Shown here in pieces: positions 9,711-56,500 of a stretch of 64,000 nt of DNA. Numbering within the stretch: the stretch's first letter is position 1; every line of letters starts with the position of its first letter. Under the pieces are notes generated by a model, which did not search any database, was not told where the DNA came from, and worked only from the letters and a program-made list of their open reading frames with translations. Source of the DNA: Pristiophorus japonicus (Eukaryota); NCBI RefSeq assembly GCF_044704955.1, contig NC_091989.1:104966001-105030000 (forward strand), in the 5' to 3' direction. The position numbers and the translations under genes are program-made.

Positions 9711-11243
9711 AAAACATAGAAACATAGAAATTAGCTGCAGGAGCAGGCCATTCGGCCCTTTGAGCCTGCACCGCCATTCAATAAGATCATGGCTGATCAT
9801 TCAACCTCAGTACCCTTTTTCTGCTTTCTCTCCATACTCCTTGATCCCTTTGGCCATAAGGACCATATCAAACTCCCTTTTGAATATATCTAATGAACTG
9901 GCCTCAACAACTTTCTGCAGTAGAGAATTCCACAGGTTAACCACTCTCTGAGTGAAGAAGTTTCTCCTCATCTCGGTCCTAAATGGCTTACCCCTTATTC
10001 TTAGACTGTGACCCCTGTTCTGGAACTCCCCAGCAACGGGAACATTCTTCCTGCCTCTAACCTGTACAATCCCATCAGAATTTTATATGTTTCTATTCTT
10101 CTCTCATTCTTCTAAACTCCAGTGGATATAAGCCCAGTTGATCCAGTCTCTCCTCATATGTCAGTCCTGCCATCCCGGGAATCAATCTGGTGAACCTTCG
10201 CTGAATTCACTCAATAGCAAGAACATCCTTCCTCAGAGTAGAAGACCAAAACTGAACACAATATTCCAGGTGTGGCCTCACCAAGGCCCTGTACAACTTC
10301 AGTAAGTCCTCCCTGCTGCTATACTCAAATCCTCTAGCTATGAAGGCCAACATGCCATTTGCCCTCTTCACTGCCTGCTGTACCTGCATGCCAAACTTCA
10401 ATGATTGAGGTACCATGACACCCAGGTCTTGCTGCACCTCCCCTTTTACTAATCTGTCACCATTCAGATAATAGTCTGTTTTCCTGTTTTTGCCACCAAA
10501 GTGGATAGCCTCACATTTATCCACATTATACTGCATCTGCCATGCATTTGCCCACTCACCTAACCTGTCCAAGTCACCCTGCAGCTTCTTAGCATCCTCC
10601 TCACAGCTCACACCACCACCCAGCTTAATGTCATCTGCAAACTTGGAGATATTACATTCAATTCCTTCATCTAAATCATTGATGTATATTGTAAATAACT
10701 GGGGTCCCAGCACTGAACCGTGCGGCACCCCACTGATCACTGCCTGCCATTCTGAAAAGGACCTGTTTATTCCGAATCTCTGCTTCCTGTCTGCTAACCA
10801 GTTCTCTATCCACATCAGCACCATGTGCTTTAATTTTGCACACTAATCTCTTGTGTGGGACCTTGTCAAAAGCATTTTGAAAGTCCAAATACACCACATC
10901 CACTGGTTCTCCCTTGTCCACTCTAGTTACATCCTCAAAAAATTCTAGGAGATTTGTCAAGCATGATTTCCCTTTCATAAATCCATGCTGACTTGGACCA
11001 ATCCTGTCACTGCTTTCCAAATGTGCTGCTATTTCTTCTTTAATTGATTCCAACATTTTCCCCACCACCGATGTTAGGCTAACCGGTCTATAATTCACTG
11101 TTTTTTCTCTCCCTTTTTTAAAAAGTGGTGTTACATTAGCTACCCTCCAGTCCATAGGAACTGATCCAGAGTCAATAAAATATTGGAAAATGATCTCCAA
11201 TGCATCCACTATTTCTAGGGCCACTTCCTTAAGTACTCTGGGA
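9711..11243 (-). mobile_element. CR1 LINE 3' half
   Basis: NYRPVSLTSVVGK, VYLDFQNAFD, GVPHGSVLGP, KFADD; (CATAGAAA)n tail at 9711-9730. Confidence 0.93.
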
Positions 11244-11344
11244 TAAGTATAGTGTCTACTGGACTTCCCTCATCCACCAACTTTGTAACTTTTTCAAAAA
11301 ATAGAATTAAGTTAGTTTGTGAGCAACTGAAGGAGAGATAGCGA

Positions 11345-16353: not shown

Positions 16354-16536
16354 GTACTTTTAGTTATATGCTTCCGCTACTGAACAGAAAATCCTATTTT
16401 AAAAGATTCTACAACTGTTGTCTATTGTAAAGTTAGATAGTGTGCTTTTCCAATTTGATTGCTGGTGTTTCTTAATTATTCTTGTATTTTACGTCTCTTA
16501 ATTATTTTTTCGCCATTCTTGTTTATTTTCTGACAG

Positions 16537-16842
16537 CCGTTGAAGTAAATTCGAACAAAGTGCATCAATTCCCTAAACACATGGAGGTTGCCAGGGGCAC
16601 AAATGTTTCCATGTTCTGCACATTTTCTATATTTCAAGATGCCCCCGATGTTTATTGGTGGAGACGCGGCGACCAGACGCTTCTGGAGCCAGACAGCAGA
16701 AAGCAATTTAATGTAAAGAAGGGCAGAGGGTCATTTGATGTCCTGAATGCGAGTGTCGCAGACTCTGGAATGTATTACTGTACAGTAAAACATAATCAAA
16801 CCGATGTTGGAGATGGAAATGGCTCCCGGCTTACTGTGTTCG
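16537..16842 (+). CDS. IgSF receptor exon 2: V-set domain with germline-joined J-like segment (NKp30/SIRP/VJ-type)
   Basis: Polypyrimidine tract TTTTCTGACAG| and donor |GTAAGT, 306 nt, phase 1-1. Motifs VSMFC, VYWW, DSGMYYC and GNGSRLTV. Confidence 0.93.
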
Positions 16843-17994
16843 GTAAGTGCCATTGTGCCGTGGAGTGGGAGATTCTCAGCAGTGTGCGGTATGTGTAAAC
16901 CTTAATTGTGGGGGTAATTTGAACTTTTATCACTGGACGAAAACCTGATGATAGCAAGTTCGTTTTACACTTCTCCCGATATTCTTTTGCTTTGACCTCG
17001 GTGTACTCCAGCCCGCGGAATCGCTATCGCCCATTTTGCGCTACTGCCCAAGATCAATTTCACCCCTTCATTGTCCGCATGAAATTCCAAAGTGCTTTAC
17101 ATCCAATAAGTTATTTGGAAGTGCAGTTACAGTTGTTATGGAGGCAAGATACTGGAAGAGTATACTTGTTTAAATCTTGGCTTGAAATGAATAACTGGGA
17201 TTAGGTGACCAGATTTCTTATCACCAAAATAGCGGTGCCGTGGAGCGACATTGGGAACAATGTTAACACTTCTTAGGTCAAATCTTTTATATAACATTAA
17301 AGGTCATCTGCTCCACTCCAACAAGGTGCCTTCGTTACAAACTCAGCAGAACAATGTCTTGCTGCAACCCTGTTTATTTCATATACCGGGTAACCTTTTG
17401 AAATTGCCAATCTAATATTTTATATTCTGAATTGCCCAAAATGTGGAATTCCCTTTCCCAGAATGCTGTGGATGGAGAAACAATTGAAGCTTTCAATATG
17501 GAGATGGATGGATTTCATTAGGCACGGGTATCAAGGGATATAGAGTTAAGTGGGACAAAATAATTTCAGATACAGATCAACCATGATCTAATTGAATGGC
17601 CTCTTCCTCTTCCTATGTCCGCAGTTTAGGCTGTGCACTTGCTTCCATCGAGAAATTATTTGAAACTGCCAAACTAATTTCACAAATGAATCTTACAACC
17701 CATTGAGAGGGGCTGTGTTGTTCTTACCCTCATTACTGGATTGGAACCCAAGTCCTAGAGCTGATGGGGCAATGTAGGAACCCAATGACTCCTTGAAACT
17801 CGGTCTTATGTCAACTGAACTTTTTTATACACTCACAACTGGGCAGGATATCACCAAACATTTCTCTAAACGCCTGGGCTCCCGTATTTCTACTTGATGG
17901 TTTCCATTTACACTCCCCCAAAACCGAGACTGCAGTTGTGGCAGGAGATCAGAGAACACCGAGCCCGCCACCTCCACGGAAATTCTGCCGCATT

Positions 17995-18725
17995 CATTTC
18001 ATAGGCAGTCCCTCGGAATCGAGGAAGACATGCTTCCACTCCAAAAGTGAGTTATTTGATGGCTGAACAGTCCGATACGAGAGCCACAGACCCTGTCACA
18101 GGTGGAACAGACATTCGTCGAGGAAAGGGGTCGGTGGGGCTGGTTTGCCGTGCGCTCCTTCCACTGCCTGCGCTTGGTCTCTTCACGTTCTTTGCGTTGA
18201 AACTCGAAAAGCTCAACACCCTCCCGGATGCACTTTCTCCACCTCAGGCAGTCTTTGGCCAGGGTCTCCCAGGTGTCAGTGGTGATGTCGCACATTACCA
18301 GGGAGGCTTTGAGGGTGTCCTTATAACGTTTCCACTGCCCTCCTTTGACTCGTTTACCATGAAGGAGATCCGCATAAAGCATTTGCTTCGGGATGCTCGT
18401 ATCTGGCATGCAGACTATGTGGCCTGCCCAGTGAAGCTGATCGAGTGTGGTCAGTACTTCAATACTGGGGATGTTAGCCTGGTCGAGGACACTGATGTTG
18501 GTGCGCCTGTCCCCCAGGGGATTTGCAGGATCTTGCGGAGACATCGTTGGTGATATATCTCCAGCGACTTGAGGTGCCTTCTATACATCGTCCATGTCTC
18601 GAATCCATACAGGAGGGCGAGTATTACTACAGCCCTGTAGACCATGAGCTTGGTGGAAGATTTGAGGGCCTGGTCTTCAAACACTCTTTTCCTCAGACAG
18701 CTGAAGGCTGCACTGGCACACTGGA
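17995..18725 (-). mobile_element. RTE LINE 3' fragment with 8-bp TSD
   Basis: QLHWAGHIVCMPDTSIPKQMLY...KRYKDTLK and a C2H2-like end; TSD GCCGCATT at 17987-17994 and 18726-18733; empty site at about 29540. Confidence 0.9.
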
Positions 18726-19866
18726 GCCGCATTACATATTAGATATAAACAGATCCATGGGGAAGGAATGGAGGAATTCTGATCTTAGGTTGGGCAGTCA
18801 ACACGGTGCTGCTGGGAATAAAGGCCAAGATACTTTTCCAAGTTAATAATGCCCTGATTTAATAAATTGCTATTGCTACAAAGTCGGACAAGTACAAATG
18901 TAAGGAAAAGATGTTAAGGAGATTGTTTGTAATAAACTGACAAAACAATGCCAACCTAATGAGGGACTCCATTTCCAGCTAAAGAGTGTCTGTCGCTCCT
19001 TCGGACAGAGGGTCACCTTAGTAACAGACGATTGTAGGACTGATATAAGCAGAATCTTCTTCAGGCAAAACGTGTTCAACAGAGCGAATAGACTTCGGGC
19101 AGGGCAAAAACCCTGGAATTATATAAGACATGCACTCTGAGTTAGGATTTCCTATTGGGTTTACCCCACCTGTATGGATGTTGTGATCTACACAGATACA
19201 CAATTATCAATATGACGTGAAAAATATTCCGGCCCTCGGTTCGCGTACTGGAGAAAGTACATTAGGAAAAGCTGCATCATCTGAAATCTCCCCCACACAA
19301 ACTGAAATGCTGAGTCTATAGATTAGCAGCATCCAGTCTGCCGTCTGTGTAGACATCAGAGATATTTCAATACATTATGTACATCTCCTCAGTATTCACC
19401 GATAATTTTGGAATGTTTCGCAATATATGAAATATCCGAAAAACGACCAATTTTGAAACAAACACACAAAATATTTAACAACGCAAAGATTATTAATGAA
19501 TAAAAAGGGCCGTTCCCACTGTTCGTGTAGACTGGGTTGCGCTCTCTCGGATATATTCGGACAGTAACCTCACTCGGAGTCACAATCGCACGCCAGGATT
19601 TGATACTTCCATTGAGAACAGTGATGTGAACCTCCCTGCATGTTACCGATCCTGGGACTTTGGCCCAGTTTGCGTACCGTTTCCAATACCCGTCATTTTG
19701 CTGTGCTGTGCAATCTATAAAATAAATGCAAACAAGTTCAAAAAACGACAGCGCGAATAACTATTGTTAACTATACGGTAACCGCATAAGGAGGGTAGGT
19801 AAATGAGAATGTGTTCCTTTAAATTGAAAAATAATGATCGATGTAATATTTTTTTCTCTGTTAAAG

Positions 19867-20160
19867 TTCCCCCAACCCCCCTAAAAATGGCTGCTGTCGA
19901 AGGAATTTCAGCGACTTCCCTGAAACTCGAGTGTAAAACGGCTGGCATTTACCCGGAGCATTTAGAAATCTCCTGGCGAAGAGATGGTATCGCAAATCTG
20001 ACCGGAATAGTAACTGTGCGAAACAGGAGCGGGGGACTGTATGAGGTTTTCAGCTGGTTGGAAGAAGCACAACCTACCCAGAACGGAGTTGTTTATACAT
20101 GTCTGGTATCTCATGTGTCTCTTCGGGTGCCCGCCAATGTCAGCTACACTGTACAGCAAG
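19867..20160 (+). CDS. IgSF receptor exon 3: C1-set domain
   Basis: TTTTCTCTGTTAAAG| ... CAAG|GTAAGA, 294 nt, phase 1-1. Motifs LECKTAGIYPEHLEISW, GLYEVFSWL and YTCLVSHVSL. Confidence 0.92.
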
Positions 20161-20344
20161 GTAAGATTAGAAACATTTACAGCGGGGAACTGCTCCAACC
20201 TGTATTTACTTATTAACAAGCAGCTGTTCAAACCCAATGATATTGGGTAAATGAGAACTGTACTTACTGTTAATGTCACATCAATGGGAATGAAATAAAA
20301 ATATGCAAAACGTGGAGTAAAGGAGGGAGACTATCTCCCTGGAA

Positions 20345-20640: not shown

Positions 20641-20830
20641 TCTTCTTTCGCATGATAGTAGCAAGGCAAATCAGATGTCGAAGTCAGATATCCAGGCCAA
20701 AGCTCCCGGTGTAACTCTGAGGTCAGTGCTCAATGATGTACCCAGGGTCTGATTAGGAGCTCCACAATCGCTGATGGCGATGCTTTAATCTTCCACCTAT
20801 GGAGAAGGTGCCAGCATCTACATGACCAGT

Positions 20831-21272
20831 TGTCGAGGAAATAGGAGACTTTCAGAACTGCACTTCGAGAGAATTGTATTTTAAAAAGCGAGATATCTCG
20901 GAGAGCCTGCTTGGACCGTACCAAGGCAGAAAACTCTGCCGTACAGGCAAATTATCCCTATCTTTATACAGAAATTGAATACAGAAATATAAAAGGAATC
21001 TTATTCATTAGTCCCGCGAGTACAAAGGTCGTCTCGGGAGGTACACACTCTATCTATCCTTGTATAGTTTCTCCCTGTTCACAGTCTGATAAGCAGAATA
21101 AAAGGAGACTCCCTTTTAATACCAGATGGTCATTTAATTGCATCTCTAAGTTTCAAAGCTAAAAAAAACGTGGCTATTTTTCTAGTCCTATTATTTATTT
21201 AAGCATAGCAAAAACAGAATTTAACCCTTCCCTTTTCCATAAGCCATAGATTCATAGATTCTTTCTTCCACA
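20831..21272 (-). repeat. ERV 3' LTR (442 bp)
   Basis: Direct repeat of 27482-27943; preceded on the minus strand by the purine tract GAGGAGGGAAT (21273-21283). Confidence 0.96.
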
Positions 21273-21318: not shown

Positions 21319-22533
21319 CTATATTCTCTTCTTGAGCAAAAGTGGGTTTATTACTTGACTAATTACATTTTTTAATTTTATCCACATTCCGCAAAGGATT
21401 ATTAATAATACAAGCATAACCACGCCTACGATTACTATGGGGTGTATAGCAAGCTTCAGTACTGCTGTAGCTTTTGGGGACCATCCGGTAAACACATCCC
21501 ACCAGTGGTGTACTGTCAAAGAGGTGACTTCATCTGCGATTCTCACTAGCTGCCCCTTCTTGTAACTCATTTCGACTCTAAATTGGTGGATGTCTCTGCC
21601 TTGCTTTGATTTCTTATCATTCCGTATCAAATTGTGCAGTCTGGTCAAATTAATTACAGGGGGTAAGGGTTCAATCTTGTGCATAGACAGATATTTTTCT
21701 TCATTTTGCCACTGCCCAAGGGTATAAGTTCTTTTTACTTCAGGGTCATACAGGGTGTAAACTCTTCTCACGCATTTATTAATGGGGGGTTTATACAAAA
21801 TTCCATCCAGATTACAACTGGTATATCTTTTTTTTTTGAGGGCTAATGGTTAAATTAAGAAGCTTATCTCTTTTGTTAATTTCCAGCAACCTTTCCCATG
21901 TGTTAGCATGGAAGGATAATATTTTCCTTTCTAACTCGGCTCTTAATAGCTGTCTGATCATTTCTTTAAACAGGCAATGGGTGTACTTGTTTACTCCCTG
22001 TTGTTCTTTCATTAGGTTCCCTATTTCCTTCTCTATCCCTTCATTCTGTTGCCAGGTCATTTCATTTATGACGTAACCTGATATCTGTAATTGCTGTAAT
22101 CCTTCATCCCAGGCATTTCTGATTTTTATTCCTGCTCCCACTCCACCTAACACAGTCTCTAATACATCCCGTTTCTTTCTTTGGTGTCTTTCTTTTTCAA
22201 ACCATCTTCTTTCTTTGGGGGATATTTAATTCGTATTGTTAGATTTAATACACCTGGGGATCTTACCACTGGGATGCAAGTGGTCAGTATCCTTTTTAGA
22301 TGTCCCGGGTCCCGGTCTTCTGGGTGGCCGGATTCTTTTACTGACCATTTTACCACAAATAGGTCTCCTCCATTGCCTTGCTGCCTCATACTATTACTTC
22401 TTTCCCATACCATATTTCCCTTCCATACTCTTCCTTCTTTTAGGACTTCTTCCTCCTGCCGGGAGTTCCCTGTCGCTAAAATGATCAGTATACCTAACGT
22501 CCATTTATAATTTTTCCAAGAGTCCCTTCCCAT
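21319..22533 (-). pseudogene. env: ERV envelope glycoprotein, frameshifted
   Basis: Signal peptide WTLGILIILATG, furin site RKKR|DVLETVLGGVGAGI (about 22181-22130), heptad-like region, and TM anchor IHPIVIVGVVMLVLLIILCGMWI, spread over three ORF pieces. Confidence 0.85.
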
Positions 22534-22748
22534 CTTCCCTTTCTTGTTTGTTTCTATACCACTCTTGAATTAAGTTGTTACAATAACAACACGTCTACAC
22601 GATAGTAACAGTGACCCAAATAATAAAGGCCCAAACTGGCACACAAATGAGCTCTGACATCCGTCCGTGAATTTTGGGCAATATTTTCAAGTCCAAATAT
22701 TCAATACAAGAGCAGGTACAGTTCTTTAGCGAGAAGATGGCTGTTTTC

Positions 22749-25700
22749 TTAGTCGGGCGACCGTAGTACGTCTTGGTTCAATGCCTTTTCCTTCGGCTGT
22801 AATTCGTCGTGGAAATAATATTTACAGCGGGTTGCATGCACCCAGTTCGGGTGCTTTTCCAACTTCAAAGCGGTTCGTGTTGTGAGAATTATCTGATACG
22901 GTCCTTTCCACCTAGGAGAAAAGGATTCTTTATTTAATGTTTTTACTAACACTTGATCTCCAGGTCTGAAAGGGTGCATATTTCTTTCCGATGGGGGCAA
23001 CTGTGTCTGCTTTATTTGTTCATGCAGACTCCTTGCTATTTCACACATGGCCTGAGCATACTTTAGTGATTTTTCATCATTCCAAATTAATGCTATTTTT
23101 TCATCTGCCAGTGGTGGTTTTACACCAGTAGGCATTGGTCTTCCCAATAAGGCTTCATGTGGTGTTAAATCAGTGTTTCGGTTTTTCTGGTTTCTCATTG
23201 TATACAATACTAATGGTAAGGCTTCTGGCCACTTCAGTCCAGTCTCCTGACATACCTTGGTAAGGGTAGATTTTATTATCCCATTTACTCTTTCTACCAT
23301 TCCCGAGGACTGTGGCTGATATGGTATATGTAACTTCCACTGGAACCCTAACGCTTCTGCAAGATTTTGCACTATTTTTCCGGTGAAGTGGGTTCCCCTG
23401 TCACTGTTGATTCCCATAGGTATCCCATATCTTGGTACTATTTCTTTAAATAGAATTTTTACTACTGTTCGGGCATCGTCTTTCCTAGTGGCGTACGCTT
23501 CTACCCACCTTGTGAACATATCTACTATGACTAATAGATACTTAAGACCTGATACTGGAGGCATGTGGACAAAGTCAATTTGCAAATTTTCAAAGGGCAT
23601 ACTTGGTTGGGGTAGATGATCATATCCAGCAGGTGTTTTACCTCTGTTATTTTGTTGACAAATTTGGCATGTTCTAGCAACTTTCTCAATTACTACTGTT
23701 ATTCCTGGTGCATACCACTGTGCATTAATAGCATGTATCATCCCTCCTTTGCCCATGTGAGCCTGACCGTGTGCTAGGCGAGACAGGGGCAAAAATAGAG
23801 ATCTAGGGCAAACAGTTCGCCCATCAGGGTGATACCAAATGTCGATTTTTAGAAAACAACCCTGGTTTTCCCAAGTTCTTCCTTCCTGCATGGTAACTTG
23901 TTGTTGGGCTGTTTAAAGTTGTTGGATGTCAAGTACCTGTGGAGGGGAAACTGAGACTGCTTGAAGGCAGTCTGCCTGTGCTGAAGCGGCCTGTTTGGCT
24001 GCTTCATCAGCCCTCCTATTTCCTACTGATACTTCATCCTCACCGGTTGTGTGAGCTGCACATTTGATAATGGCTACCTTACTTGGCAACTGAATGGCGT
24101 CTAGTAGATTAAGCACCAGTTGAGAGTGCTTAATATGCTTTCCACCAGAGGTGATAAAGCCTCTGTTTTTCCACAGTTGTCCAAAATCATGGACCACACC
24201 GAATGCATATCTAGAATCAGTATAGATATTAGCAGTATGATCTTTAGCTATTATACAAGCTCTAATGAGGGCAAACAATTCAGCAGCCTGAGCCGAGGTT
24301 CCGGGAGGCAGGGCGAATGCTTCAACAGTTTCGTGGGGATTTACAATAGCATAGCTTGCCAAAAACAAATCATCCGACGGCCTATGTGATGATCCATCCG
24401 TATAGAGAATAAGATCAGGATTGTCCATGGGCTCTGTGAGCAAATCTGATCTTGGTGAGGTGGCTATTTCCACCGTTAACAGACAATCATGCTGGTCTGG
24501 ATCCTCTACTTCTTTAGTAGGAAGAAAGGTGGCTGGGTTCACTACCGGTGCACGTCGAAAGGTATAGTTAGGGTGTGACAGCAGTAATACTTCATAACCT
24601 GTTCTTCCAGACGCTGTAAAGTGTTGTGTGGCAGCTGAATTCAAAAGTAATAACACAGCATGGGCTGTAATAACAGTACATGGATGATCCAAAACAATAG
24701 GTACCGACTTTTCCACCATGACCGCAGTAGCAGCTACAGCACGTAGACATGCTGGCATTCCCCTTACTACTAGAGGCAGCAAAAATGAATAATAAGCAAC
24801 TGGTCTATTTCCCCCACCATGTTCTTGGGTTAGTACTGCTGTTGCAAATCCTTCTTTCTCATTCACATACATCTGAAAAGGTTTACCATAATTCGGAAGT
24901 CCCAACGCCGGAGCATTAGTAATGGCTTTCTTTAACTATTTAAATGTCTCCTCTCTCTCTGGGGTCCACTCCACCTTGGGTGGGGCATCATTTAGGGCAG
25001 CTGATCTTAGGACCGCATCCCATTCTCGATAATTGTCTGAATTCTTTCTGGTCCTAGCTGCCTCTGCCCTTTAGATATGTGAAAACCCAGGTACTGGACT
25101 TGAGTCTGACAAAATTGTAACTTTTGTAACGACACTCGGTGCCCTCTTTCACATAGGTGCTGTAACAGTGTCAGGGAATCTTGCATGCACCTGTATCCGT
25201 GGCTAGAAGCCACAAGCAAATCATCCGCACACTGCAGCAGTACAGACTGGTCTGATAATGAACAGTCTTCGAGGTCTCTTTTTATTGCTGCTGCATATAC
25301 TGCGGGGCTTTCGGTGTATCCTTGGGGCAACCTGGTCCATGTGTACTGCTGCTTCTTGTGGGTGAAAGCAAACAGATACTGACTTTCTTGATTTAACGGG
25401 ATGGAGAAAAAAGCTGAACACAGGTCTATTGCAGTAAAGACAGTTGCTGTTGGTGGTATAGCAGATAGTATAATGTTGGTGTCCGGTACCACAGGGGTGA
25501 TAGGGACTACTATCTTATTAATAGCTCTCAGATCTTGCACAAATCTCCATTCCTACAATCATCGGACCCATATCTTTAGGTTTCGCTGGCGGTTTTACAG
25601 CCAATGTCAGATGGGGTGTCGAGTTCGCTTCTCTAAACCGCTGTTGCTGTAAGGGTGTCAAATCGATGGCTACCCCCAATCCTTCTGGTCCAAAATAAAT

Positions 25701-26372
25701 GCGGGGCGTAGCTTCTACTATTTCTTCTCTATTTAAAAAGGATTGTACCAAACACTGGTAAGTTTCAGCTTTTTGTCGAGTGTACCAGGCTGTACAGTGA
25801 AGCTGAACTGCCTCAAAGCTTGTCAAAATTATATACATCAATTCTTCAGTATTAGAGTCAATTTTAGCTTTTAAGTTTTGTATAACTTCATGTATCAAGG
25901 GGGAATAGAAGTTGCCATTCAATTGCCAACAATAGAGGGCAGCCTTTTCTTTGTTATCCTCCCTTTTCTCTTTTTTAATCCGATTAAAGAACTGATGGAT
26001 TTTATTTGGAGGGAGCTCCATGAACATTCCTTCCTTTGTGCAATAAATTGTGGCTCCTAGTTTGCACAAAGTCTGTCTTCCCAATAAAGGGAGAGGTGTT
26101 GTTTTAGAGACTATCAAAGTCTCATCATTAACTGATTGTCCTTCAATTATCAATTTGGTAGGTTCAGATAAAAATTCTTTCATGGGGATACCGGCCACAC
26201 CCATACTTAAGACGGTGGTGTTGCTTACAGGTAATCCCACAGAGGATGGTACAGAAGACATAGTAGCACCGGTATCCACCAGGAATTTCATATAAGTGTC
26301 TCCTACTTTTACTACTGCCAGAGGGTTTTCTTCTATGTCTGCCAATAAGCGGAGGGCTGCCGCCTGTACCAC
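22749..26372 (-). pseudogene. pol: ERV pro-pol: protease, 2H-like insert, RT (deleted and mutated), RNase H, integrase
   Basis: LVDTGA/LLGR protease; QDLRAINK, LPQGY and CADD (YxDD mutated); YTDGSS, SAQAAEL, YTDSRY, GNRRAD RNase H; HHCC, LQIDF, SDRGTHF, VERVN and WKGPY in an open 380-aa integrase ORF. Confidence 0.95.
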
Positions 26373-26390
26373 TAAGCCTCCGGGGCATCC

Positions 26391-27143
26391 CTATGCTGAT
26401 TATTCTGCGCCTGTCCTCGTCCCTTTTGCTGATTTACTGACCTGCTGTTTTAGCCTTATTTTCATTATAGGTAAATAGTCCCTCTCTATCCATGTTAGCC
26501 AGTACTGTAACTGTCTCTTTCCAACTTTTTCCTTGCCAGTCCAAAACCTTTATTTTGTATGTTCTTGCTTGTTGTGGCAACATACAATTTAACAAGGTTT
26601 GCACTGCCAAAGATTCATCTTTTACCCCTTGCCAAGAGGACCCATATGCTGCCTGCAGTAATAATTTCACATCTCCGGGGAGGGGGTTATAAATGGTACA
26701 GGTTTGCTCAAGCCAGTTGTGAAAGGCTACTGGCTTCTTAACAGGATTAGGGGCGGCTGATATATATTTTTTTTAAAACAATTCTCCATATAATCTTTAT
26801 CCCAAGTGGGGTCCCCTGTCCCATTTTTGGTGGTCTGTCTCCATTCCTCAATTAAGGACGATTTAAAACTTCCTCCATATGGCCAATCCACATCAGACCA
26901 ACCGTACAAATCGCTACTAAACGTTACCGCATATCTGTCGTCTCCTGTTTCTTTAATTACAGTGTCCGCCGGCGAGCCGGGCAGCACAATGGGATCTCCT
27001 ACCTTCTCTCGTTGCTTTACTACCTTACTGATTCTTTTCTCAGTCTTAGGATGTACTTTCTTTCTTTCAGTTGAGAGGTCGTCCTTCTTTCTTTTTCTAG
27101 GAGCTGGGCGCGAGCGCCCTGCTCGACTAGAGCCGTTTCCCAT
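26391..27143 (-). pseudogene. gag: ERV gag, shortened and frameshifted
   Basis: MGNGSS myristoylation-type start, matrix-like WPYGGSF, capsid remnants, and a TAG-GGA-TGC readthrough-like context at 26393-26385. No CCHC finger seen. Confidence 0.75.
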
Positions 27144-27457
27144 TCTGCCGGATGCAACGCCTCGCGATCTTTTCTGAAATGAGAGTTAGGATAATCCTAC
27201 AAAATATACAATAATTTACAAAGCGCTCACCGGTATTCTCTTTTCTGCTCAGCTCGGGGTCTCCTTTTGCCTTTTTGTTATTTTAGCTTCTTTGCGGTAG
27301 CTACCTTATGCCTCACCCCCTAGGGGATCTCGGCGGCCCGTCCCCCTTTTGCTAGGATGGCCTAGGCACCTTCCTCCTTTCAGCTAGGAAGGTCCTTAAA
27401 ATTCCTTTTTTCTCTTTAAAAGTTAAAGTTAGTTCTTTTGGATCTCGTTTTTTAGAG

Positions 27458-27476
27458 ATCCTGCCTGACTACGCCA
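27458..27476 (-). promoter_or_regulatory. Primer-binding site, tRNA-Ser-like
   Basis: TGGCGTAGTCAGGCAGGAT, 5 nt after the 5' LTR; complementary to the tRNA-Ser 3' end (TCCTGCCGACTACGCCA) with one extra base. Confidence 0.85.
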
Positions 27477-27481
27477 GAATC

Positions 27482-27943
27482 TGTCGAGGAAATATTAGCT
27501 TAAATTAACTCAGGCGGAGACTTTCAGAACTGCACTTCGAGAGAATTGTATTTTAAAAAGCGAGATATCTCGGAGAGCCTGCTTGGACCGTACCAAGGCA
27601 GAAAACTCTGCCGTACAGGCAAATTGTCCCTATCTTTATACAGAAATTGAATACAGAAATATAAAAGGAATCTTATTCATTAGTCCCGCGAGTACAAAGG
27701 TCGTCTCGGGAGGTACACACTCTATCTATCCTTGCATAGCTTCTCCCTGTTCACAGTCTGATAAGCAGAATAAAAGGAGACTTCCTTTTAATACCAGATG
27801 GTCACTTAATTGCATCTCTAAGTTTCAAGGCTAAAAAAACGTGGCTATTTTTCTAGTCCTATTATTTCTTTAAGCATAGCAAAAACAGAATTTAACCCTT
27901 CCCTTTTCCATAAGCCATAGATTCATAGATTCTTTCTTCCACA
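27482..27943 (-). repeat. ERV 5' LTR (462 bp)
   Basis: Direct repeat of 20831-21272, adjacent to the PBS. Confidence 0.96.
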
Positions 27944-28529
27944 CCAGTTCTGAGGCAGTTGATGTTTCTCCACTGGTTGCAAGGAAGGTTTGATCCTTCA
28001 GGTTGTACTGTGAGGTCTTTATAAGAAATCCATTCTGTATGTCAAAGTTCTTCGAAGCACTTTGCCATCGGTCATCAAGGTTAAGGGGAGATTGCTGAAG
28101 GGCTTCGGCAATGGTCCAAAATGGCCTTCTATATTTGTCATAGGTTGGTGGTATTTTCTTCAAATCAGTCTGGATCATCAGCATGTCTTTGCTGGTGTAC
28201 CGGTTGTATTCTCTGGAGGCTGCATATTCGCATTGTAGGTGTGGTGATGTGATATTTGCCAGCACCGGCAGCCAAGGAGTTGGTGTTGATAAATGCGTAG
28301 TGGGACTAGCTGAAGTGCCCTTGCAGAGAGCCGGCATGGACTCAATGGGCTGAATGGCCTCTTTCTGTGCTGTAACCATTCTATATTTCTATGGAGAAAT
28401 CCACAACGGGAGGTTGATGTGCGAACTGCTCAAAACCTGAAAGATTATTTCTCCTCAAATGAAATTAAATTATGCAACAAATGGATAAGTTCTACCAGAT
28501 TCGCTTGTACATCCTGTGTATTTAAATAG

Positions 28530-29144: not shown

Positions 29145-32100
29145 AGGGATATGGAGTTAAGTGGGTCACATGAATTTAGGCTGTGCACTTGCGTGCACTG
29201 AGAACTTATTTGAGACTGCCAAACTCATTCCACAAATGAATCTTACAACCCATTGAGAGGGGCTATGTTGTTCTTACCCTCAATACTGGATTGGAACCGA
29301 AGTCCCAGAGCTGATGAGGCAGTGCAGGAATGAAATGCCCCTGTTTGAAACTCGGTCTTATGCCAATTGAACTTTTTTATACACTCACAATTGGGCAGGA
29401 TATCACCGAACATTTCTCTAAATGCCTGGGCTCCCGTATTTGTACTTGATGGTTTCCATTACACTCCCCCCAACCGGAGACTGTAGTTATGGCAGGAGAT
29501 CAGAGAACACCGAGCATGCCACCTCCACAGAAATTCTGCCGCATTACATATTAGATATAAATAGATCCGTGGGGAAGGAATGGAGGAATTCAGATCTTAG
29601 GTTGGGCAGTCAACATGGTGCTGCTGGGAAAAAAAGGACAAAATAATTTTCCAAGTTAATAATGCCCTGATTTAATAAATTGCTATTGCTACAAAGTCGG
29701 ACAAGTACAAAAGTAAGGAAAATATGTTAAGGAAATTGTTTGTAATAAACTGACAAAACAATGCAAACCTATTGAGGGACTCTATTTCCAGCTAAACAGT
29801 GTCTGTAGCCCCAGCGAGTAACAGATGATTGTAGGACTGATATAAGCAGAATTTTCTTCAGGCAAAACATGATCAACAGAGCGAATAGACTTCGGGCAGG
29901 GCAAAAACCCTGGAATTATATAAGACATGCACTCTGAGTTAGGATTTCCTATTGTGTTTCCCCCATCTGTATGGATGTTGTGATCTACACGGAGATACGT
30001 AGTGGTCTGACGAGATGAATTTAAGGAGCTAGAAGCTAAATTAAAAAGTAGGACCTCAAAAGTAGTAATCTCGGGATTGCTACCAGTGCCATGTGCTAGT
30101 CAGAGTAGGAATCGCAGGATAGCTCAGATGAATGTGTGGCTTCAGCAGTGGTGCAGCAGGGAGGGATTCAAATTCCTGGGGCATTGGAACCGGTTCTGGG
30201 GGAGATGGGACCAGTACAAACTGGATGGTCTGCACCTAGGCAGGACCAGAACTAATGTCTTAGGGGGAGTGTTTGCTAGTGCTTTTGGGGAGGAGTTAAA
30301 CTAATATGGCAGGGGGATGGGAACCAATGCAGGGAGACAGAGGGAAACAAAATGGAGACAGAAGCAAAAGACAGAAAGGAGATGAGTAAAATTGGAGGGC
30401 AGAGAAACCCAAGGCGAAAAACAAAAAGGGCCACTTTACATCAAAATTCTAAAGGGTCAAAGTGTATTATAAAGACAAGCCTGAAGGCTCTGTGCCTCAA
30501 TGCGAGGAGTATTCGAAATAAGGTGGATGAATTAACTGTGCAGATAGCAGTAAACGGATACGATGTGGTTGGCATCACGGAGACATGGCTCCAGGGTGAC
30601 CAAGGTTGGGAACTCAACATCCAAGGGTATTGAACATTTAGGAAGGATAGACAGAAAGGAAAAGGAGGCGGGATGGCATTGCTGGTTAAAGAGGAAATTA
30701 ATGCAATTGTAAGGAAAGACATTAGCTTGGATGATGTGGAATCAGTATGGGTGGAGCTACGGAATACCAAAGGGCAGAAAACGCTAGTGGGAGTTGTGTA
30801 CAGACTTCCAAACAGTAGTAGTGATGTTGGGGAGGGCATCAAACAGGAAATTAGGGATGCATGCAATAAAGGTGCAGCAGTTATCATGGGTGACTTTAAT
30901 ATGCATATAGATTGGGCTAACCAAACTGGAAATGATACGGTGGAGGAGCATTTCCTGGAGTGCATAAGGGATGGTTTTCTAGACCAATAGGGTAACTTTG
31001 AAGGTATGAGGCGTGAATTGGCTAGGATAGATTGGCGAATGATATTTAAGGGGTAGATAGTGGATGGGCAATGGCAGGCATTTAGAGACCGCATGGATGA
31101 ACTACAACAATTGTACATCCCTGTCTGGCGTAAAAATAAAAAAGGGAAGGAGGCTCAACCGTGGCTATCAAGGGAAATCAGGGATAGTATTAAAGCTAAG
31201 GAAGTGGCATACAAATTGGCCAGAAATAGTAGTGAACCTGGGGACTGGGAGAAAATTAGAACTCAGCAGAGGAGAACAAAGGGTTTGATTAGGGCAGGGA
31301 AAATAGAGTACGAGAGGAAGCTTGCAGGGAACATTAAAATGGACTGCAAAAGCTTCTATAGATATGTAAAGAGAAAAAGGTTAGTAAAGACAAACGTAGG
31401 TCCCCAGCAGTCAGAATCAGGGGGAAGTCATAACTGTGAACAAAGAAATGGCAGACCAATTGAACAAGTACTTTGGTTCGGTATTCACTAAGGAGGACAC
31501 AAACAACCTTCCGGATATGAAAGGGGTCAGAGGGTCTAGTAAGAAGGAGGAACTGAGGGAAATCCTTATTAGTTGGGAAATTGTGTTGGGGAAATTGATG
31601 GGATTGAAGGCCGATAAATCCCCAGGGCCTGATGGTCTGCATCCCAGAGTACTTAAGGAGGTGGTCTTGGAAATAGCGGATGCATTGACAGTCATTTTCC
31701 AACATTCCATAGACTCTGGATCAGTTCCTATGGAGTGCAGGGTAGCCAATGTAACCCCACTTTTTAAAAAAGGAGGGAGAGAGAATACAGCGAATTTTAG
31801 ACCGGTCAGCCTGACATCGGTAGTAGGTAAAATGATGGAATCAATTATTAAGAATGTCATAGCAGCGCATTTGGAAAGAGGTAACATGATAGGTCCAAGT
31901 CAGTATAGATTTGTGAAAGGGAAATCATGCTTGACAAATCTTCTGGAATTTTTTGAGGATGTTTCCAGTAGAATGGACAAGGGAGAACCAGTTGATGTGG
32001 TGTATTTGGACTTTCAGAAGGCTTTCGACAAGGTTGCACACAAGAGATTAATGTGCAAAGTTAAAGCACATGGGATTGGGGGTAGTGTGCTGACGTGGAT

Positions 32101-33860
32101 TGAGAACTGATTGGCAGACAGGAAGCAAAGAGTAGGAGTAAATGTGTACTTTTCAGAATGGCAGGCAGTGACTAGTGGGGTACCGCAAGGTTCTGTGCTG
32201 GGGCCCCAGCTGTTTACATTGTACATTAATGATTTAGACGAGGGGATTAAATGTAGTATCTCCAAATTTGCAGATGACACTAATTCGGGTGGCAGTGTGA
32301 GCTGCGAGGAGGATGATATGAGGCTGCAGAGTGACTTGGATAGGTTAGGTGAGCGGGCAAATGCATGGCAGATGAAGTATAATGTGAATAAATGTGAGGT
32401 TATCCACTTTGGTTGTAAAAACAGAGAGACAGACTATTATCTGAATGGTGACAGTTTAGGAAAAGAGGAGGTGCAACGAGACCTGGGTGTCATGGTACAT
32501 CAGGCATTGAAGGTTGGCATGCAGATACAGCAGGCGGTTAAGAAGGCAAATGTCATGTTGGCCTTCATAGCGAGGGGATTTGAGTACAGGGGTGGGAGGT
32601 GTTACTACAGTTGTACAGGGCCTTGGTGAGGCCACACCTGGAGTATTGTGTACAGTTTTGGTCTCCTAACTTGAGGAAGGACATTCTTGCTATTGACGGA
32701 GTGCAGCGAAGGTTCACCAGACTAATTCCCTGAATGGCGGGACTGACATATCAAGAAAGACTGGATCAACAGGGCTTGTATTCACTGGAGTTCAGAAGAA
32801 TGAGAGGGGATTTCATAGAAAATTCTGACGGGTTTAGACAGGTTAGATGCAGGAAGAATGTTCCTAATGTTGGAGAAGTCCAGAACCAGGGGTCACAGTC
32901 TAAGGATAAGGGGTAAGCCATTTAGGACCGAGATGAGGAGAAACTTCTTCACCCAGAGAGTGGTGAACCTGTGGAATTCTCTACCACAGAAAGTTGTTGA
33001 GGCCAAGTCACTAAATATATTCAAAAAGGAGTTAGATGTAGTCCTTACTACTAGGGGGATCAAGGGGTATGGTGAGAAATCAGAAATGGGGTACTGAAGT
33101 TGTATGTTCAGCCATGAACTCATTGAATGGTGGTGCAGGCTCGAAGGGCCGAATGGCCTACTCCTGCACCTATTTTCTATGTTTCTATGTTTCTATCAAT
33201 ACAACCCTATCGTGACGTGATAACTATTCCAGCCCTCGGTTCGCGCTCTGGAGAAAGTACATTAGGGAAAGCTGCATGATCTGAAATCTCCCCCACACAA
33301 ACTGAAATGCTGAGTTGGCAACTGGAATGCGCGGGTTCTAATCTATAGATTAGCAGCATCCAGTCTGCCGTCTGTGTAGATAACGGAGATATTTCAATAT
33401 ATTATGTAGATCTCCTCAATATGCACCGATAATTTTGGAATGTTTCGCAATATATGAAATATCCGAAAAACGACCAATTTTGAAAGAAACACACAAAATG
33501 TTTAACACCGCCAAGATTATTAATGAATAAAAAGAGACGGTTCCACTGTTCGTGCAGACAGGGTTGCGCTCTCTCCGATATATTCGGACAGAAACCTCAC
33601 TTGGGGTCACTGCTGTCAACCACAATCCGCGCCAGGATCTGATACCTCCATTGGGAACAGTGACGCGGGGCTCCCTGTATGTTACCGATCCTGGGAGACT
33701 CGGCCCTCTTTGCCTACCGTTCCCAATACATCCCGTCATACTGCTGTGCGCCGTAAAACAATTTATAAAGTAGATGCAACCACAAAGTTTAAAAAACGAC
33801 AGCGCGGATAACTAATGTGACAGCAGGATTGTAACAAACATACCCAGGGTGGGTAAATGA
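29145..33860 (+). repeat. Intragenic duplicate of intron segment about 17525-19808 (interrupted here by a CR1)
   Basis: 29145-29990 aligns to 17525-19195 (minus the RTE), and 33200-33860 aligns to 19200-19808. Confidence 0.9.
30009..33196 (+). mobile_element. CR1 LINE, 5'-truncated within ORF1, ORF2 disrupted
   Basis: ORF1 esterase end DGLHL; endonuclease LNARS, GITETW, MGDFN; RT; (TTTCTATG)n tail; stops and an internal deletion of about 200 bp near 30990. Confidence 0.95.
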
Positions 33861-38687: not shown

Positions 38688-41305
38688 TCCAGCAAGGAGG
38701 GATTCAAATTCCTGGGGCATTGGGACCAGTTCTGGGGGAGGTGGGACCAGTACAAACCGGACGGTCTGCACCTGGGCAGGACCGGAACCAATGTCCTAGG
38801 GGGAGTGTTTGTTAGTGCTGTTGGGGAGGATTTAAACTAATATGGCAGGGGGATGGGAACCAATGCAAGGAGACAGAGGGAAACAAAAAGGAGGCAAAAG
38901 CAAAAGACAGAAAGGAGATGAGGAAAAGTGGAGGGCAGAGAAACCCAAGGCAAAGAACAAAAAGGGCCACTGTACAGCAAAATTCTAAAAGGACAAAGGG
39001 TGTTAAAAAAATAAGCCTGAAGGCTTTGTGTCTTAATGCAAGGAGTATCCGCAATAAGGTGGATGAATTAATTGTGCAAATAGATGTTAATAAATATGAT
39101 GTGATTGGGATTACGGAGACGTGGCTCCAGGATGATCAGGGCTGGGAACTCAACATTCAGGGGTATTCAACATTCAGGAAGGATAGAATAAAAGGAAAAG
39201 GAGGTGGGGTAGCATTGTTGGTTAAAGAGGAGATTAATGCAATAGTTAGGAAAGACATTAGCTTGGATGATGTGGAATCTATATGGGTAGAGCTGCAGAA
39301 CAGCAAAGAGCAAAAAACGTTAGTAGGAGTTGTGTACAGACCTCCAAACAGTACTAGGGATGTTGGGGAGGGCATCAAACAGGAAATTAGGGGTGCATGC
39401 AATAAAGGTGTAGCAGTTATAATGGGTGACTTTAATATGCACATAGATTGGGCTAGCCAAACTGGAAGCAATACGGTGGAGGAGGATTTCCTGGAGTGCA
39501 TAAGGGATGGTTTTCTAGACCAATATGTTGAGGAACCAACTAGGGGGGAGGCCATCTTAGACTGGGTGTTGTGTAATGAGAGAGGATTAATTAGCAATCT
39601 CATTGTGCGAGGCCCCTTGGGGAAGAGTGACCATAATATGGTGGATTTCTGCATTAGGATGGAGAATGAAACAGTTAATTCAGAGACCATGGTCCAGAAC
39701 TTAAAGAAGGGTAACTTTGAAGGTATGAGGCGTGAATTGGCTAGGATAGATTGGCGAATGATACTTAGGGGGTTGACTGTGGATGGGCAATGGCAGACAT
39801 TTAGAGACCGCATGGATGAATTACAACAATTGTACATTCCTGTCTGGCGTAAAAATAAAAAAGGGAAGGTGGCTCAACCGTGGCTATCTAGGGAAATCAG
39901 GGATAGTATTAAAGCCAAGGAAGTGGCATACAAATTGGCCAGAAATAGCAGCGAACCTGGGGACTGGGAGAAATTTAGAACTCAGCAGAGGAGGACAAAG
40001 GCTTTGATTAGGGCAGGGAAAATGGAGTACGAGAAGAAACTTGCAGGGAACATTAAGGTGGATTGCAAAAGTTTCTATAGGTATGTAAAGAGAAAAAGGT
40101 TAGTAAAGACAAATGTAGGTCCCCTGCAGTCAGAATCAGGGGAAGTCATAACGGGGAACAAAGAAATGGCAGACCAATTGAACAAGTACTTTGGTTCGGT
40201 ATTCACTAAGGAGGATACAAACAACCTTCCGGATATAAAAGGGGTCAGAGGGTCTAGTAAGGAGGGGGAACTGAGGGAAATCTTTATTAGTCGGGAAATT
40301 ATGTTGGGGAAATTGATGGGATTGAAGGCCGATAAATTCCCAGGGCCTGATGGACTGCATCCCAGAATACTTAAGGAGGTGGCCTTGGAAATAGCGGATG
40401 CATTGACAGTCATTTTCCAACATTCCATTGACTCTAGATCAGTTCCTATGGAGTGGAGGGTAGCCAATGTAACCCCACTTTTTAAAAAAGGAGGGAGAGA
40501 GAAAGCAGGGAATTATAGACCGGTCAGTCTGACCTCAGTAGTGGGTAAAATGATGGAATCAATTATTAAGGATGTCATAGCAGTGCATCTGGGTGTCATG
40601 GTACATCAGTCATTGAAGGTTAGCATGCAGGTACAGCAGGCAGTTAAGAAAGTAAATGGCATGTTGGCCTTCATAGCGAGGTGGTTTGAATACAGGGGCA
40701 GGGAGGTGTTGCTACAGTTGTACAGGGCCTTGGTGAGGCCACACCTGGAGTATTGTGTACAGTTTTGGTCTCCTAACTTGAGGAAGGACATTCTTGCTAT
40801 TGAGGGAGTGCAGCGAAGATTCACCAGACTGATTCCCGGGATGGCGGGACTGACCTATCAAGAAAGACTGGATCAACTGGGCTTGTATTCACTGGAGTTC
40901 AGAAGAATGAGAGGGGACCTCATAGAAACGTTTAAAATTCTAACAGGTTTAGACAGGTTAGATGCAGGAAGAATGTTCCCAATGTTGGGGAAGTCCAGAA
41001 CCAGGGATCACAGTCTGAGGATAAGGGGTAAGCCATTTAGGACCGAGATGAGGAGAAACTTCTTCACCCAGAGAGTGGTGAACCTGTGGAATTCTCTACC
41101 ACAGAAAGTAGTTGAGACCAATTCACTAAATATATTCAAAAGGGAGTTAGATGAAGTCCTTACTACTCGGGGGATCAAGGGTTATGGCGAGAAAGCAGGA
41201 AGGGGATACTGAAGTTTCATGTTCAGCCATGAACTCATTGAATGGCGGTGCAGGCTAGAAGGGCTGAATGGCCTGCTCCTGCACCTATTTTCTATGTTTC
41301 TATGT
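38688..41305 (+). mobile_element. CR1 LINE with in-frame deletion of the RT core; 764-aa ORF2 open at 38918-41212
   Basis: Complete endonuclease, then junction IAVH|LGVMVH at about 40589; lacks the YLDF, PQG and FADD motifs; intact tail. Confidence 0.95.
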
Positions 41306-53557: not shown

Positions 53558-56500
53558 AAACATAGAAACATAGAAAATAGGTGCAGGAGCAGGCCATTCA
53601 GCCCTTCTAGCCTGCACCGCCATTCAATGAGTTCATGGCTGAACATGAAACTTCAGTACCCTCTTCCTGCTTTCACGCCATACCCCTTGATCCCCCGAGT
53701 AGTAAGGACTTCATCTAACTCCCTTTTGAATATATTTAGTGAATTGTCCTCAACTACTTTCTCTGGTAGAGAATTTCACAGGTTCACCACTCTCTGGGTG
53801 AAGAAGTTTCTCCTCATCTCAGTCCTAAATGGCTTACTCCTTATCCTTAGACTGTGATCCCTGGTTCTGGACTTCCCCAACATTGGGAACATTCTTCCTG
53901 CATCCAACCTGTCCAAACCCGTCAGAATTTTAAACGTTTTTATGAGGTCCCCTCTCACTCTTCTGAACTCCAGTGAATACAAGCCCAGTTGATCCAGTCT
54001 TTCTTGATAGGTCAGTCCCACCATCCCGGGAATCAGTCTGGTGAATCTTTGCTGCACTCCCTCAATAGCAAGAATGTTCTTCCTCAAGTTAGGAGACCAA
54101 AACTGTACACAATACTCCAAGTGTGGCCTCACCAAGGCCCTGTACAACTGTAGCAACACCTCCCTGCCCCTGTACTCAAATCCCCTCGCTATGAAGGCCA
54201 ACATGCCATTTGCTTTCTTAACCGCCTCCTGTACCTGCATGCCAACCTTCAATGACTGATGTACCATGACACCCAGGTCTCGTTGCACCTTCCCTTTTCC
54301 TAATCTGTCACCATTCAGATAATAGTCTGTCTCTCTGTTTTTACCACCAAAGTGGATAACCTCACATTTATCCACATTATACTTCATCTGCCATGCATTT
54401 GCCCACTCACCTAATCTATCCAAGTCACTCTGCAGCCTCATAGCATCCTCCTCGCAGCTCACACTGCCACCCAACTTAGTGTCATCCGCAAATTTGGAGA
54501 TACTACATTTAATCCCCTCGTCTAAATCATTAATGTACAATGTAAACAGCTGGGGCCCCAGCACAGAACCTTGCGGTACCCACTAGTCACTGCCTGCCAT
54601 TCTGAAAAGTACCCATTTACTCCTACTCTTTGATTCCTGTCTGACAACCAGTTCTCAATCCACGTCAGCACACTACCCCCAATCCCATGTGCTTTAACTT
54701 TGCACATTAATCTGCTGTGTGGGACCTTGTCGAAAGCCTTCTGAAAGTCCAAATATACCACATCAACTAGTTCTCCTTTGTCCACTTTACTGGAAACATC
54801 CTCAAAAAATTCCAGAAGATTTGTCAAGCATGATCTCCCTTTCACAAATCCATGCTGACTTGGACCTATCATGTCACCATTTTCCAAATGCGCTGCTATG
54901 ACATCCTTAATAATTGATTCCATCATTTTACCCACTACTGAGGTCAGGCTGATCGGTCTATAATTACCTGCTTTCTCTCTCCCTCCTTTTTTAGAAAGTG
55001 GGGTTACATTGGCTACCCTCCACTCGATAGGAACTGATCCAGAGTCAATGGAATGTTGGAAAATGACTGTCAATGCATCCGCTATTTCCAAGGCCACCTC
55101 CTTAAGTACTCTGGGATGCGGTCCATCAGGCCCTGGGGATTTATCGGCCTTCAATCCCATTAATTTCCCCAACACAAGTTCCCGACTAATAAAGATTTCC
55201 CTCAGTTCCTCCTCCTTACATATCCGGAAGGTTGTTTGTGTCCTCCTTAGTGAATACTGAACCAAAGTACTTGTTCAATTGGTCTGCCATTTCTTTGTTC
55301 CCCGTTATGACTTCCCCTGATTCTGACTGCAGGGGACCTACGTTTGTCTTTACTAACCTTTTTCTCTTTACATACCTATAGAAACTTTTGCAATCCGCCT
55401 CAATGTTCCCTGCAAGCTTCTTCTCGTACTCCATTTTCCCTGCCCTAATCAAACCCTTTCTCCTCCTCTGCTGAGTTCTAAATTTCTCCCAGTCCCCAGG
55501 TTCGCTGCTATTTCTGGCCAATTTGTATGCCACTTCCTTGGCTTTAATACTATCCCTGATTTCCCTAGATAGCCACGGTTGAGCCACCTTCCCTTTTTTA
55601 TTTTTATGCAAGACAGGAATGTACAATTGTTGTAATTCATCCATGCGGTCTCTAAATGTCTGCCATTGCCCATCCACAGTCAACCCCTTAAGTATCATTC
55701 GCCAATCTATCTTAGCCAATTCACGCCTCATACCTTCAAAGTTACCCTTCTTTAAGTTCTGGACCATGGTCTCTGAATTAACTGTTTCATTCTCCATCCT
55801 AATGCAGAATTCCACCATATTATGGTCACTCTTGCCCAAGGGGCCTCGCACAATGAGATTGTTAATTAATCCTCTCTCATTACACAACACCCAGTCTAAG
55901 ATGGCCTCCCCCCTAGTTGGTTCCTCGACATATTGGTCTCGAAAACCATCCCTTATGCACTCCAGGAAATCCTCCTCCACCGTATTGCTTCCAGTTTGGC
56001 TAGCCCAATCTATGTGCATATTAAAGTCACCCATTATAACTGCTCACCTTTATTGCATGCACCCCTAATTTCCTGTTTGATGCCCTCCCCACCATCACTA
56101 CTACTGTTTGGAGGTCTGTATACAACTCCCACTAACGTTTTTTTGCCCTTTAGTGTTCTGCAGCTCTACCTATATAGATTCCACATCATCCAAGCTAATG
56201 TCTTTCCTAACTATTGCATTAATCTCCTCTTTAACCAGCAATGCTACCCCACCTCCTTTTCCTTTTATTCTATCCTTCCTGAATGTTGAATACCCCTGGA
56301 TGTTGAGTTCCCAGCCCTGATCATCCTGGAGCCATGTCTCCGTAATCCCAATCACATCATATTTGTTAACATCTATTTGCACAGTTAATTCATCCACCTT
56401 ATTGCTGATACTCCTTGCATTAAGACACAAAGCCTTCAGGCTTGCTTTTTTAACACCCTTTGTCCTTTTAGAATTTTGCTGTACAGTGGCCCTTTTTGTT

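Follow-up and report, generated by a model that had tools for sequence, protein, structure and literature searches.

A CNPase-type 2H phosphoesterase domain between protease and reverse transcriptase in a shark endogenous retrovirus family

An endogenous retrovirus (ERV) in the genome of the shark Pristiophorus japonicus carries two HxT motifs between its protease (PR) and its reverse transcriptase (RT). It lies in a stretch of 64,000 nucleotides (contig NC_091989.1, positions 104,966,001 to 105,030,000), referred to as the window. The question raised by this locus is which enzyme the two motifs belonged to and what a retrovirus might have used it for. The initial annotation, made from the letters of the window, read the region as a 2H phosphoesterase comparable to coronavirus ns2 and rotavirus VP3.

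The region is part of a 7.1-kb defective provirus on the minus strand that consists of LTRs and broken gag, RT, RNase H, integrase and env remnants (Table 1). Features of class I (epsilon-like) ERVs are present, namely the order LTR-gag-pro-pol-env-LTR, a target-site duplication and an MLV-type integrase C-terminus. Judged from its LTRs, which differ at 7 of 429 compared columns (98.1% identity) and by a further 21-nt indel near one end, the provirus is young. Pfam searches returned no gag family for the gag remnant and no env family for the env remnant, and we infer the identity of the latter from its position and sequence. Contigs from sequencing runs have loose ends near 26401 and 26433, within the gag remnant. 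The TAG preceding the pro frame is likely the gag stop, read through to yield Gag-Pro-Pol by analogy with gamma/epsilon-type retroviruses, where read-through of the gag stop makes this polyprotein. The primer-binding-site-like stretch may correspond to the 3' end of a tRNA-Ser.

Table 1 Features of the provirus and of its two-histidine domain in the window (positions of the window; a dot marks a feature without strand).
Feature	Position	Strand	Basis or remark
Target-site duplication, left copy, 5 bp	20826..20830	.	Identical 5 bases past the other LTR at 27944-27948
3' LTR (TG...CA)	20831..21272	-	Purine-rich tract just upstream on the minus strand
env remnant, three broken frames	21319..22569	-	Basic cleavage-like site, hydrophobic peptide, transmembrane-like stretch
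Integrase frame	22749..23912	-	Pfam rve 3.9e-19, MLVIN_C 4.8e-16, Integrase_H2C2 2.1e-8
RT connection and RNase H frame	23913..24935	-	Pfam RT_RNaseH_2, RNase_H 3.6e-23
RT remnant without N-terminal part, early end, motif CADD	25007..25552	-	Pfam RVT_1 1.2e-24; comparison with P0003 and P0006
Deletion junction, about 7-nt microhomology	25546..25552	-	Sister copies have 437 nt more at this point
CNPase-like 2H domain, retained N-terminal three quarters (P0003 residues 106-239)	25546..25946	-	
Second HxT (HLT), His 260 of the ORF; invariant Gly of predicted helix α7 15 residues on	25605..25613	-	
First HxT (HCT), His 198 of the ORF; aromatic at +5 as CNPase Phe235	25791..25799	-	
Aspartic protease, DTG at 26276-26268	26046..26333	-	Pfam RVP 2.6e-10; ORF residues 20-115
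TAG immediately before the pro frame	26391..26393	-	Sequence
gag remnant, short and broken (stops, frame changes, internal losses)	26394..27185	-	ORFs
Primer-binding-site-like stretch, starts TGG, 5 nt past the 5' LTR	27459..27476	-	Sequence
5' LTR	27482..27943	-	Repeat comparison

Two plus-strand exons, a V-set exon (16476-16895, E 2.3e-10) and a C1-set exon (19803-20216, E 4.5e-7), belong to a V-C1 gene of the Ig superfamily. The provirus follows the C1 exon at a distance of about 600 bp, in antisense orientation, probably as an insertion in one of the introns of this gene. Blocks at 17625-19657 and 29175-33696 are repeated on either side of the provirus at 87-95% identity; they are likely either dispersed repeats of the shark genome or products of a local duplication. 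Fragments of LINE-type endonuclease/RT are located at 38816-41209 (plus strand, with a 798-aa open frame containing an endonuclease domain), 10210-11269 (minus), 30280-32629 (plus) and 53779-56640 (minus).

In the window copy, the minus-strand ORF 25518-26390 (290 aa) begins directly after the TAG and encodes PR first, then the two-histidine region. Both HxT motifs picked out by the initial annotation are present after the protease with their histidines 62 codons apart; the coordinates it gave fit the HxT triplets but not the full strings, as QLHCTAW spans 25805-25785 and TPHLTLAV 25619-25596. The open frame does continue past the protease, although for 175 aa rather than about 190, the last 8 of which are out of frame beyond a deletion junction. 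The motifs had also been called intact, which holds for both triplets but not for the domain around them, about a quarter of which is lost to a 437-nt deletion. The retained part shares 96% identity with P0003, a UniRef entry under the name Pristiophorus japonicus, which is in frame from protease through the 2H domain into RT. The window copy matches P0003 to residue 239 and picks up at residue 383 in another frame; the missing residues 240-382 cover the C-terminal remainder of the 2H domain, a linker and the RT N-terminus. Mapped onto an AlphaFold2 model, the deletion removes the end of a predicted helix α7 and four C-terminal strands, leaving the window copy with an incomplete 2H fold. Since gag is broken and the domain has lost its last four predicted strands, the window locus is very likely dead and makes no active enzyme. 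The initial annotation had set a dead RT (CADD) against surviving motifs; the CADD reading was confirmed, but the contrast carries no weight, because the provirus is young, most codons survive everywhere and the same deletion cuts both the domain and the RT N-terminus.

The same gap is common to 21 of the 30 first loci, a sample ranked by similarity to the window, and the junction is spanned at 36 of 40 scored loci and thus at a minimum of 36. Contigs from the runs of two studies diverge from the window at this junction (loose ends 25549/25552). Splicing was considered as the cause of the gap and rejected, since no register offers a GT..AG pair and these 36 loci have the junction in their genomic DNA. 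The deletion would fit template switching during reverse transcription. Because the deleted subfamily has no working RT, this form likely spread after loss of the RT N-terminus by being copied in trans. Other lesions are also shared: CADD is found in four deleted copies (L001, L013, L018, L019), the same early RT end is common to the window and P0003, and matches stop at residue 472 in many copies. Such shared lesions suggest that the family comprises several subfamilies that are non-autonomous and were copied in trans. At C3:232.76-232.92 Mb, about 26 domain matches spaced roughly 5.35 kb apart form a tandem array of a deleted ERV unit.

The fold was judged on full-length natural sister sequences, and structure prediction followed by Foldseek supports the 2H fold proposed by the initial annotation. 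For the Atlas model of the sister P0003 (residues 106-275), CNPase scored a TM of 0.73 and was the only row above the bar set for naming a fold. An AlphaFold2 model of a natural sister copy, based on a 20-row alignment that contained no CNPase, had a pLDDT of 64.7, compared with 32.9 from a single sequence; its motif-1 region (model residues 46-62) is below 50, and active-site geometry lies outside the reach of the model. Among the listed Foldseek matches against the PDB with E ≤ 0.001, all are CNPase or goldfish RICH, with CNPase at 13-18% identity. VIA gave mouse CNPase a Z of 10.5 over 181 residues, the sole chain out of 48161 with Z ≥ 5, while rotavirus VP3 (4rpt) scored 3.2, the penguinpox cGAMP phosphodiesterase 3.1, phage Acb1 2.8 and MHV ns2 (4z5v) 2.6. 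Right after motif 2, a helix is predicted at model residues 126-143 (pLDDT 81-87) that would correspond to α7, which is described as unique to CNPase in the available text of PMC4643303 and PMC5283653. At the sequence level, a profile of the domain reaches RICH and CNPase at E of about 0.001, with no other 2H family among 39 matches, and scores the host CNP exon (gene on C21) at 8.3 bits compared with at most 4.5 for 500 shuffles. Pairwise BLAST of the domain against this exon gave an E of 0.64, Pfam on the domain returned no 2H family with CNPase (PF05881) below cut-off, a Pfam CNPase search of the host genome did not match the ERV copies, and phmmer of the cut domain of the window against the PDB gave one chance match (E 0.97). 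As far as profile and predicted structure can tell, the domain is a member of the 2H superfamily and of CNPase type. The likening to ns2 and VP3 thus named the wrong 2H subclass, given their Z of 2.6 and 3.2 against 10.5 for CNPase.

Homologues are found well beyond the shark. A phmmer search of the domain against 1.84 billion representatives gave 19 matches, one of which (P0024) was dropped as a spurious repeat artefact, and two further searches extended the set by one protein from a croaker and another six. Named hosts are the teleosts Larimichthys, Austrofundulus, Sarotherodon, Corythoichthys, Takifugu and Salarias and the salamanders Pleurodeles and Lissotriton. Wherever flanks exist, the gene order is PR-2H-RT. 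Both histidines are invariant in 20/20 rows and, after dropping three near-duplicates, in 17/17, while the Thr/Ser of the two motifs is kept in 16/17 and 15/17. With the histidines invariant at 19-28% identity, conservation of the paired motifs in these alignments exceeds chance, in agreement with the view that paired Hx(T/S) motifs mark a 2H phosphoesterase here. An aromatic residue is found at His+5 in 17/17 homologues (Tyr 12, Phe 5), the comparison position in CNPase being Phe235 (PMC4643303, available text), and Gly at His+15 in 17/17, as in host CNP. Taking equivalence from spacing rather than superposition, the counterpart of Arg307 is absent (0/17 with Arg at His-2) and the position of Val321 (His+12) is Lys/Arg/His in 15/17, so the pocket differs from that of CNPase. 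Trees were built from 15 rows for the domain and from the 11 rows with a detectable motif for RT, the rows including no named reference epsilonretrovirus. A shark, newt and croaker group appears in both, apart from most teleosts, with support of 92/88 (2H) and 100/99 (RT). The domain evolves much faster than RT (shark branch 2.5 vs 0.44) with its catalytic residues kept. The domain tree is moderately supported, and its shark branch is long. The trees are consistent with one old acquisition that was inherited with pol.

Within the host genome, the domain family is high-copy, with 1263 candidate matches in 5.9 Gb, and 150 of the 150 scored are at least 90% identical. From 60 loci picked by similarity to the domain, 58 copies were mapped, 54 of them with the full set of four catalytic residues; the two unmapped copies also carry both motifs. 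As these loci had been selected for domain similarity, a second, partially overlapping sample was taken by RT similarity alone (30 loci, reduced to 28 by dropping two tandem duplicates), in which the catalytic residues are intact in 24 copies, two others having the motifs in different frames and two a Thr change. Motif survival alone says little, since the family is so young that 60 of 134 domain columns are unchanged across the 58 copies. The piN/piS of the domain, a ratio that pools non-independent pairs and includes CpG decay, is 0.33 (0.22-0.51) in 37 undeleted copies and 0.41 (0.28-0.62) in the 28 RT-chosen copies, compared with 0.26-0.40 for RT and 0.48-0.50 for protease. The domain in sister copies is under purifying selection, which answers the dN/dS-type check proposed by the initial annotation. 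With a 2H fold predicted and the motifs conserved in sister proviruses, neither of the two outcomes named there as speaking against the domain was observed. Host co-option, as suggested by motifs kept while RT died, was rejected: the retained part in 21 deleted copies has a ratio of 0.52 (0.25-1.15), compatible with neutrality.

Alternatively, the domain might have no catalytic role and persist as a spacer or hitch-hiking relic for the sole reason that Pol has to stay in frame. The subfamily without the domain C-terminus reached at least 36 loci, and the linker has a ratio below 1 just as PR does. However, that subfamily is also without a working RT and was therefore copied in trans, and a spacer would not preserve both histidines in every one of the 17 homologues along with nearly all of the Thr/Ser. 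We consider a spacer or relic most improbable.

With catalysis favored, the substrate has to be considered. The initial annotation proposed an antagonist that degrades 2-5A to block OAS-RNase L, in the manner of coronavirus ns2 and rotavirus VP3, enzymes of the same superfamily. The shark host has OAS genes (16 exon matches, 15 of them clustered on C8). This cluster holds about five genes at C8:218.42-218.60 Mb (L063-L066), with one more match on C1. A weak, exon-level and insensitive search with PF06479 found no RNase L; the two KEN-domain loci that it gave read like IRE1. Cartilaginous fish are reported to possess a functional OAS-RNase L pair, whereas ray-finned fishes and Caudata are reported to have lost it (PMC10400998, available text). 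All eight named non-shark hosts belong to such lineages, yet their viruses kept both histidines, an argument to be read with databases being teleost-rich and these viruses switching hosts. This host range makes 2-5A unlikely as the conserved substrate. Further, α7 blocks the side on which 2-5A would bind in CNPase (PMC5283653, available text) and is predicted in the viral domain, and VP3 and ns2 fall far below CNPase in structural similarity. Action on 2-5A is thus disfavored as the function, and we regard it as quite unlikely.

A second candidate substrate is 2'3'-cGAMP, whose hydrolysis would blunt cGAS-STING sensing of reverse-transcribed DNA. The host-range objection would not apply to this substrate, as both fish and amphibians have cGAS-STING. 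Other viral 2H enzymes, the penguinpox cGAMP phosphodiesterase and phage Acb1, do act on cGAMP, and a domain that changes faster than RT, keeps its catalytic residues and has a pocket unlike that of CNPase would suit such a role. Both of these enzymes are however only remotely similar to the viral domain (Z 3.1 and 2.8), and α7 limits substrate size (PMC4643303, PMC5283653, available text). We find a cGAMP phosphodiesterase unlikely. The same doubt applies to a broader scenario, in which an ancient clade of retroviruses, with sharks, salamanders and teleosts as hosts, took CNPase from a host, altered its pocket (no Arg307, a basic residue at the Val321 position) and packages it via Pol or Env to destroy a nucleotide danger signal that all these hosts share, for example 2'3'-cGAMP. 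If this unlikely scenario were true, a captured and re-tuned CNPase would be the first retroviral second-messenger nuclease.

The domain could also act without catalysis, by competing with host CNP or serving as its decoy. Host CNP is induced by interferon, binds HIV-1 Gag and blocks assembly in a manner that does not depend on its enzyme activity. Restriction of lentiviral assembly by host CNP is described in the available text of PMC5758531 and PMC5434554, the viral domain would be at the assembly site, and Env polyproteins of walleye retroviruses contain this fold too. Mimicry should however preserve host-like surfaces, while the viral domain is 13-18% identical to CNPase and keeps both catalytic His unchanged among homologues that are about 25% identical overall. 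A decoy appears very improbable.

We hypothesize, with a probability of about 0.6, that in the ancestral virus the domain was a virion-packaged 2',3'-cyclic phosphate 3'-phosphodiesterase, a reading based on the sequence and models described above. The domain would be made only within Gag-Pro-Pol via read-through of the gag stop, and packaging would follow from its being made solely as part of this polyprotein; within the particle, it would probably be freed by the protease. The site of action may be the assembly site, the particle or the cell just after entry. In CNPase, one His activates water and the other protonates the 3'-O, giving a 2'-phosphate (PMC4643303, available text). The viral enzyme may likewise have used His-His acid-base catalysis, with the water held by the N-terminus of α7, to convert 2',3'-cyclic phosphates to 2'-phosphates. 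It would have acted on the RNA ends that metal-independent RNases of the host produce, or on free 2',3'-cNMPs, and so have cleared products of RNA damage where virions assemble or inside them. What makes the domain of wider interest is that it is constrained and of CNPase type, accompanies RT in viruses from three classes of vertebrates and is kept where the host lacks OAS-RNase L. The activity of the retroviral domain may bear on the physiological substrate of vertebrate CNPase and on what is gained from a packaged CNPase.

Related domains in fish retroviruses are already in print. Basta et al. 2009 reportedly placed a CNPase domain between PR and RT. According to PMC4977317, which cites their paper (J Virol 83:10152), a CNPase or macro domain can be encoded by epsilon-like ERVs of ray-finned fishes, and PMC9503650 lists 2H domains in a fish retrovirus and in walleye dermal sarcoma virus (WDSV; citing Mazumder 2002). 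Term searches of the main texts of Han 2015 (PMC4422223) and of PMC8672886 gave no mention of CNPase. Literature listings yielded no functional test of a retroviral CNPase-type domain and, together with the main text of PMC4422223, whose supplements may list cases, no report of the domain from a shark or salamander.

Compared with known 2H proteins, the viral domain is closest to vertebrate CNPase and goldfish RICH (2xmi, 1woj, 2i3e; PF05881), with which it shares the fold, two HxT motifs, the aromatic at His+5, Gly at His+15 and the predicted α7. It differs in its 13-18% identity, in being shorter (motifs 62 residues apart), in lacking an N-terminal PNK-like RNA-binding domain and in being part of a polyprotein. 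The 2',5'-phosphodiesterases ns2, VP3-CTD and AKAP7 share the superfamily and the paired Hx(T/S), but have no α7 and bind 2-5A on the side that α7 blocks (PMC5283653, available text), and Z is only 2.6-3.2 for ns2 and VP3. The top viral fold matches, at E 1e-4, are Env polyproteins of WDSV and WEHV-1 (BFVD A4GTG3, Q9WHI8), with entry Q2VF30 also among the top matches of the viral library. In these walleye viruses the fold is located in Env, at 12-13% identity, and here it is located in Pol, so a CNPase-like domain occupies two different virion proteins among fish retroviruses. Teleost epsilon-like ERVs likewise carry a CNPase-type domain, in PR-2H-RT order in the homologues analysed. To this type of domain, already known from fish retroviruses, the shark family adds another case, distinguished by its shark host, its close salamander relatives and a window copy cut by deletion.
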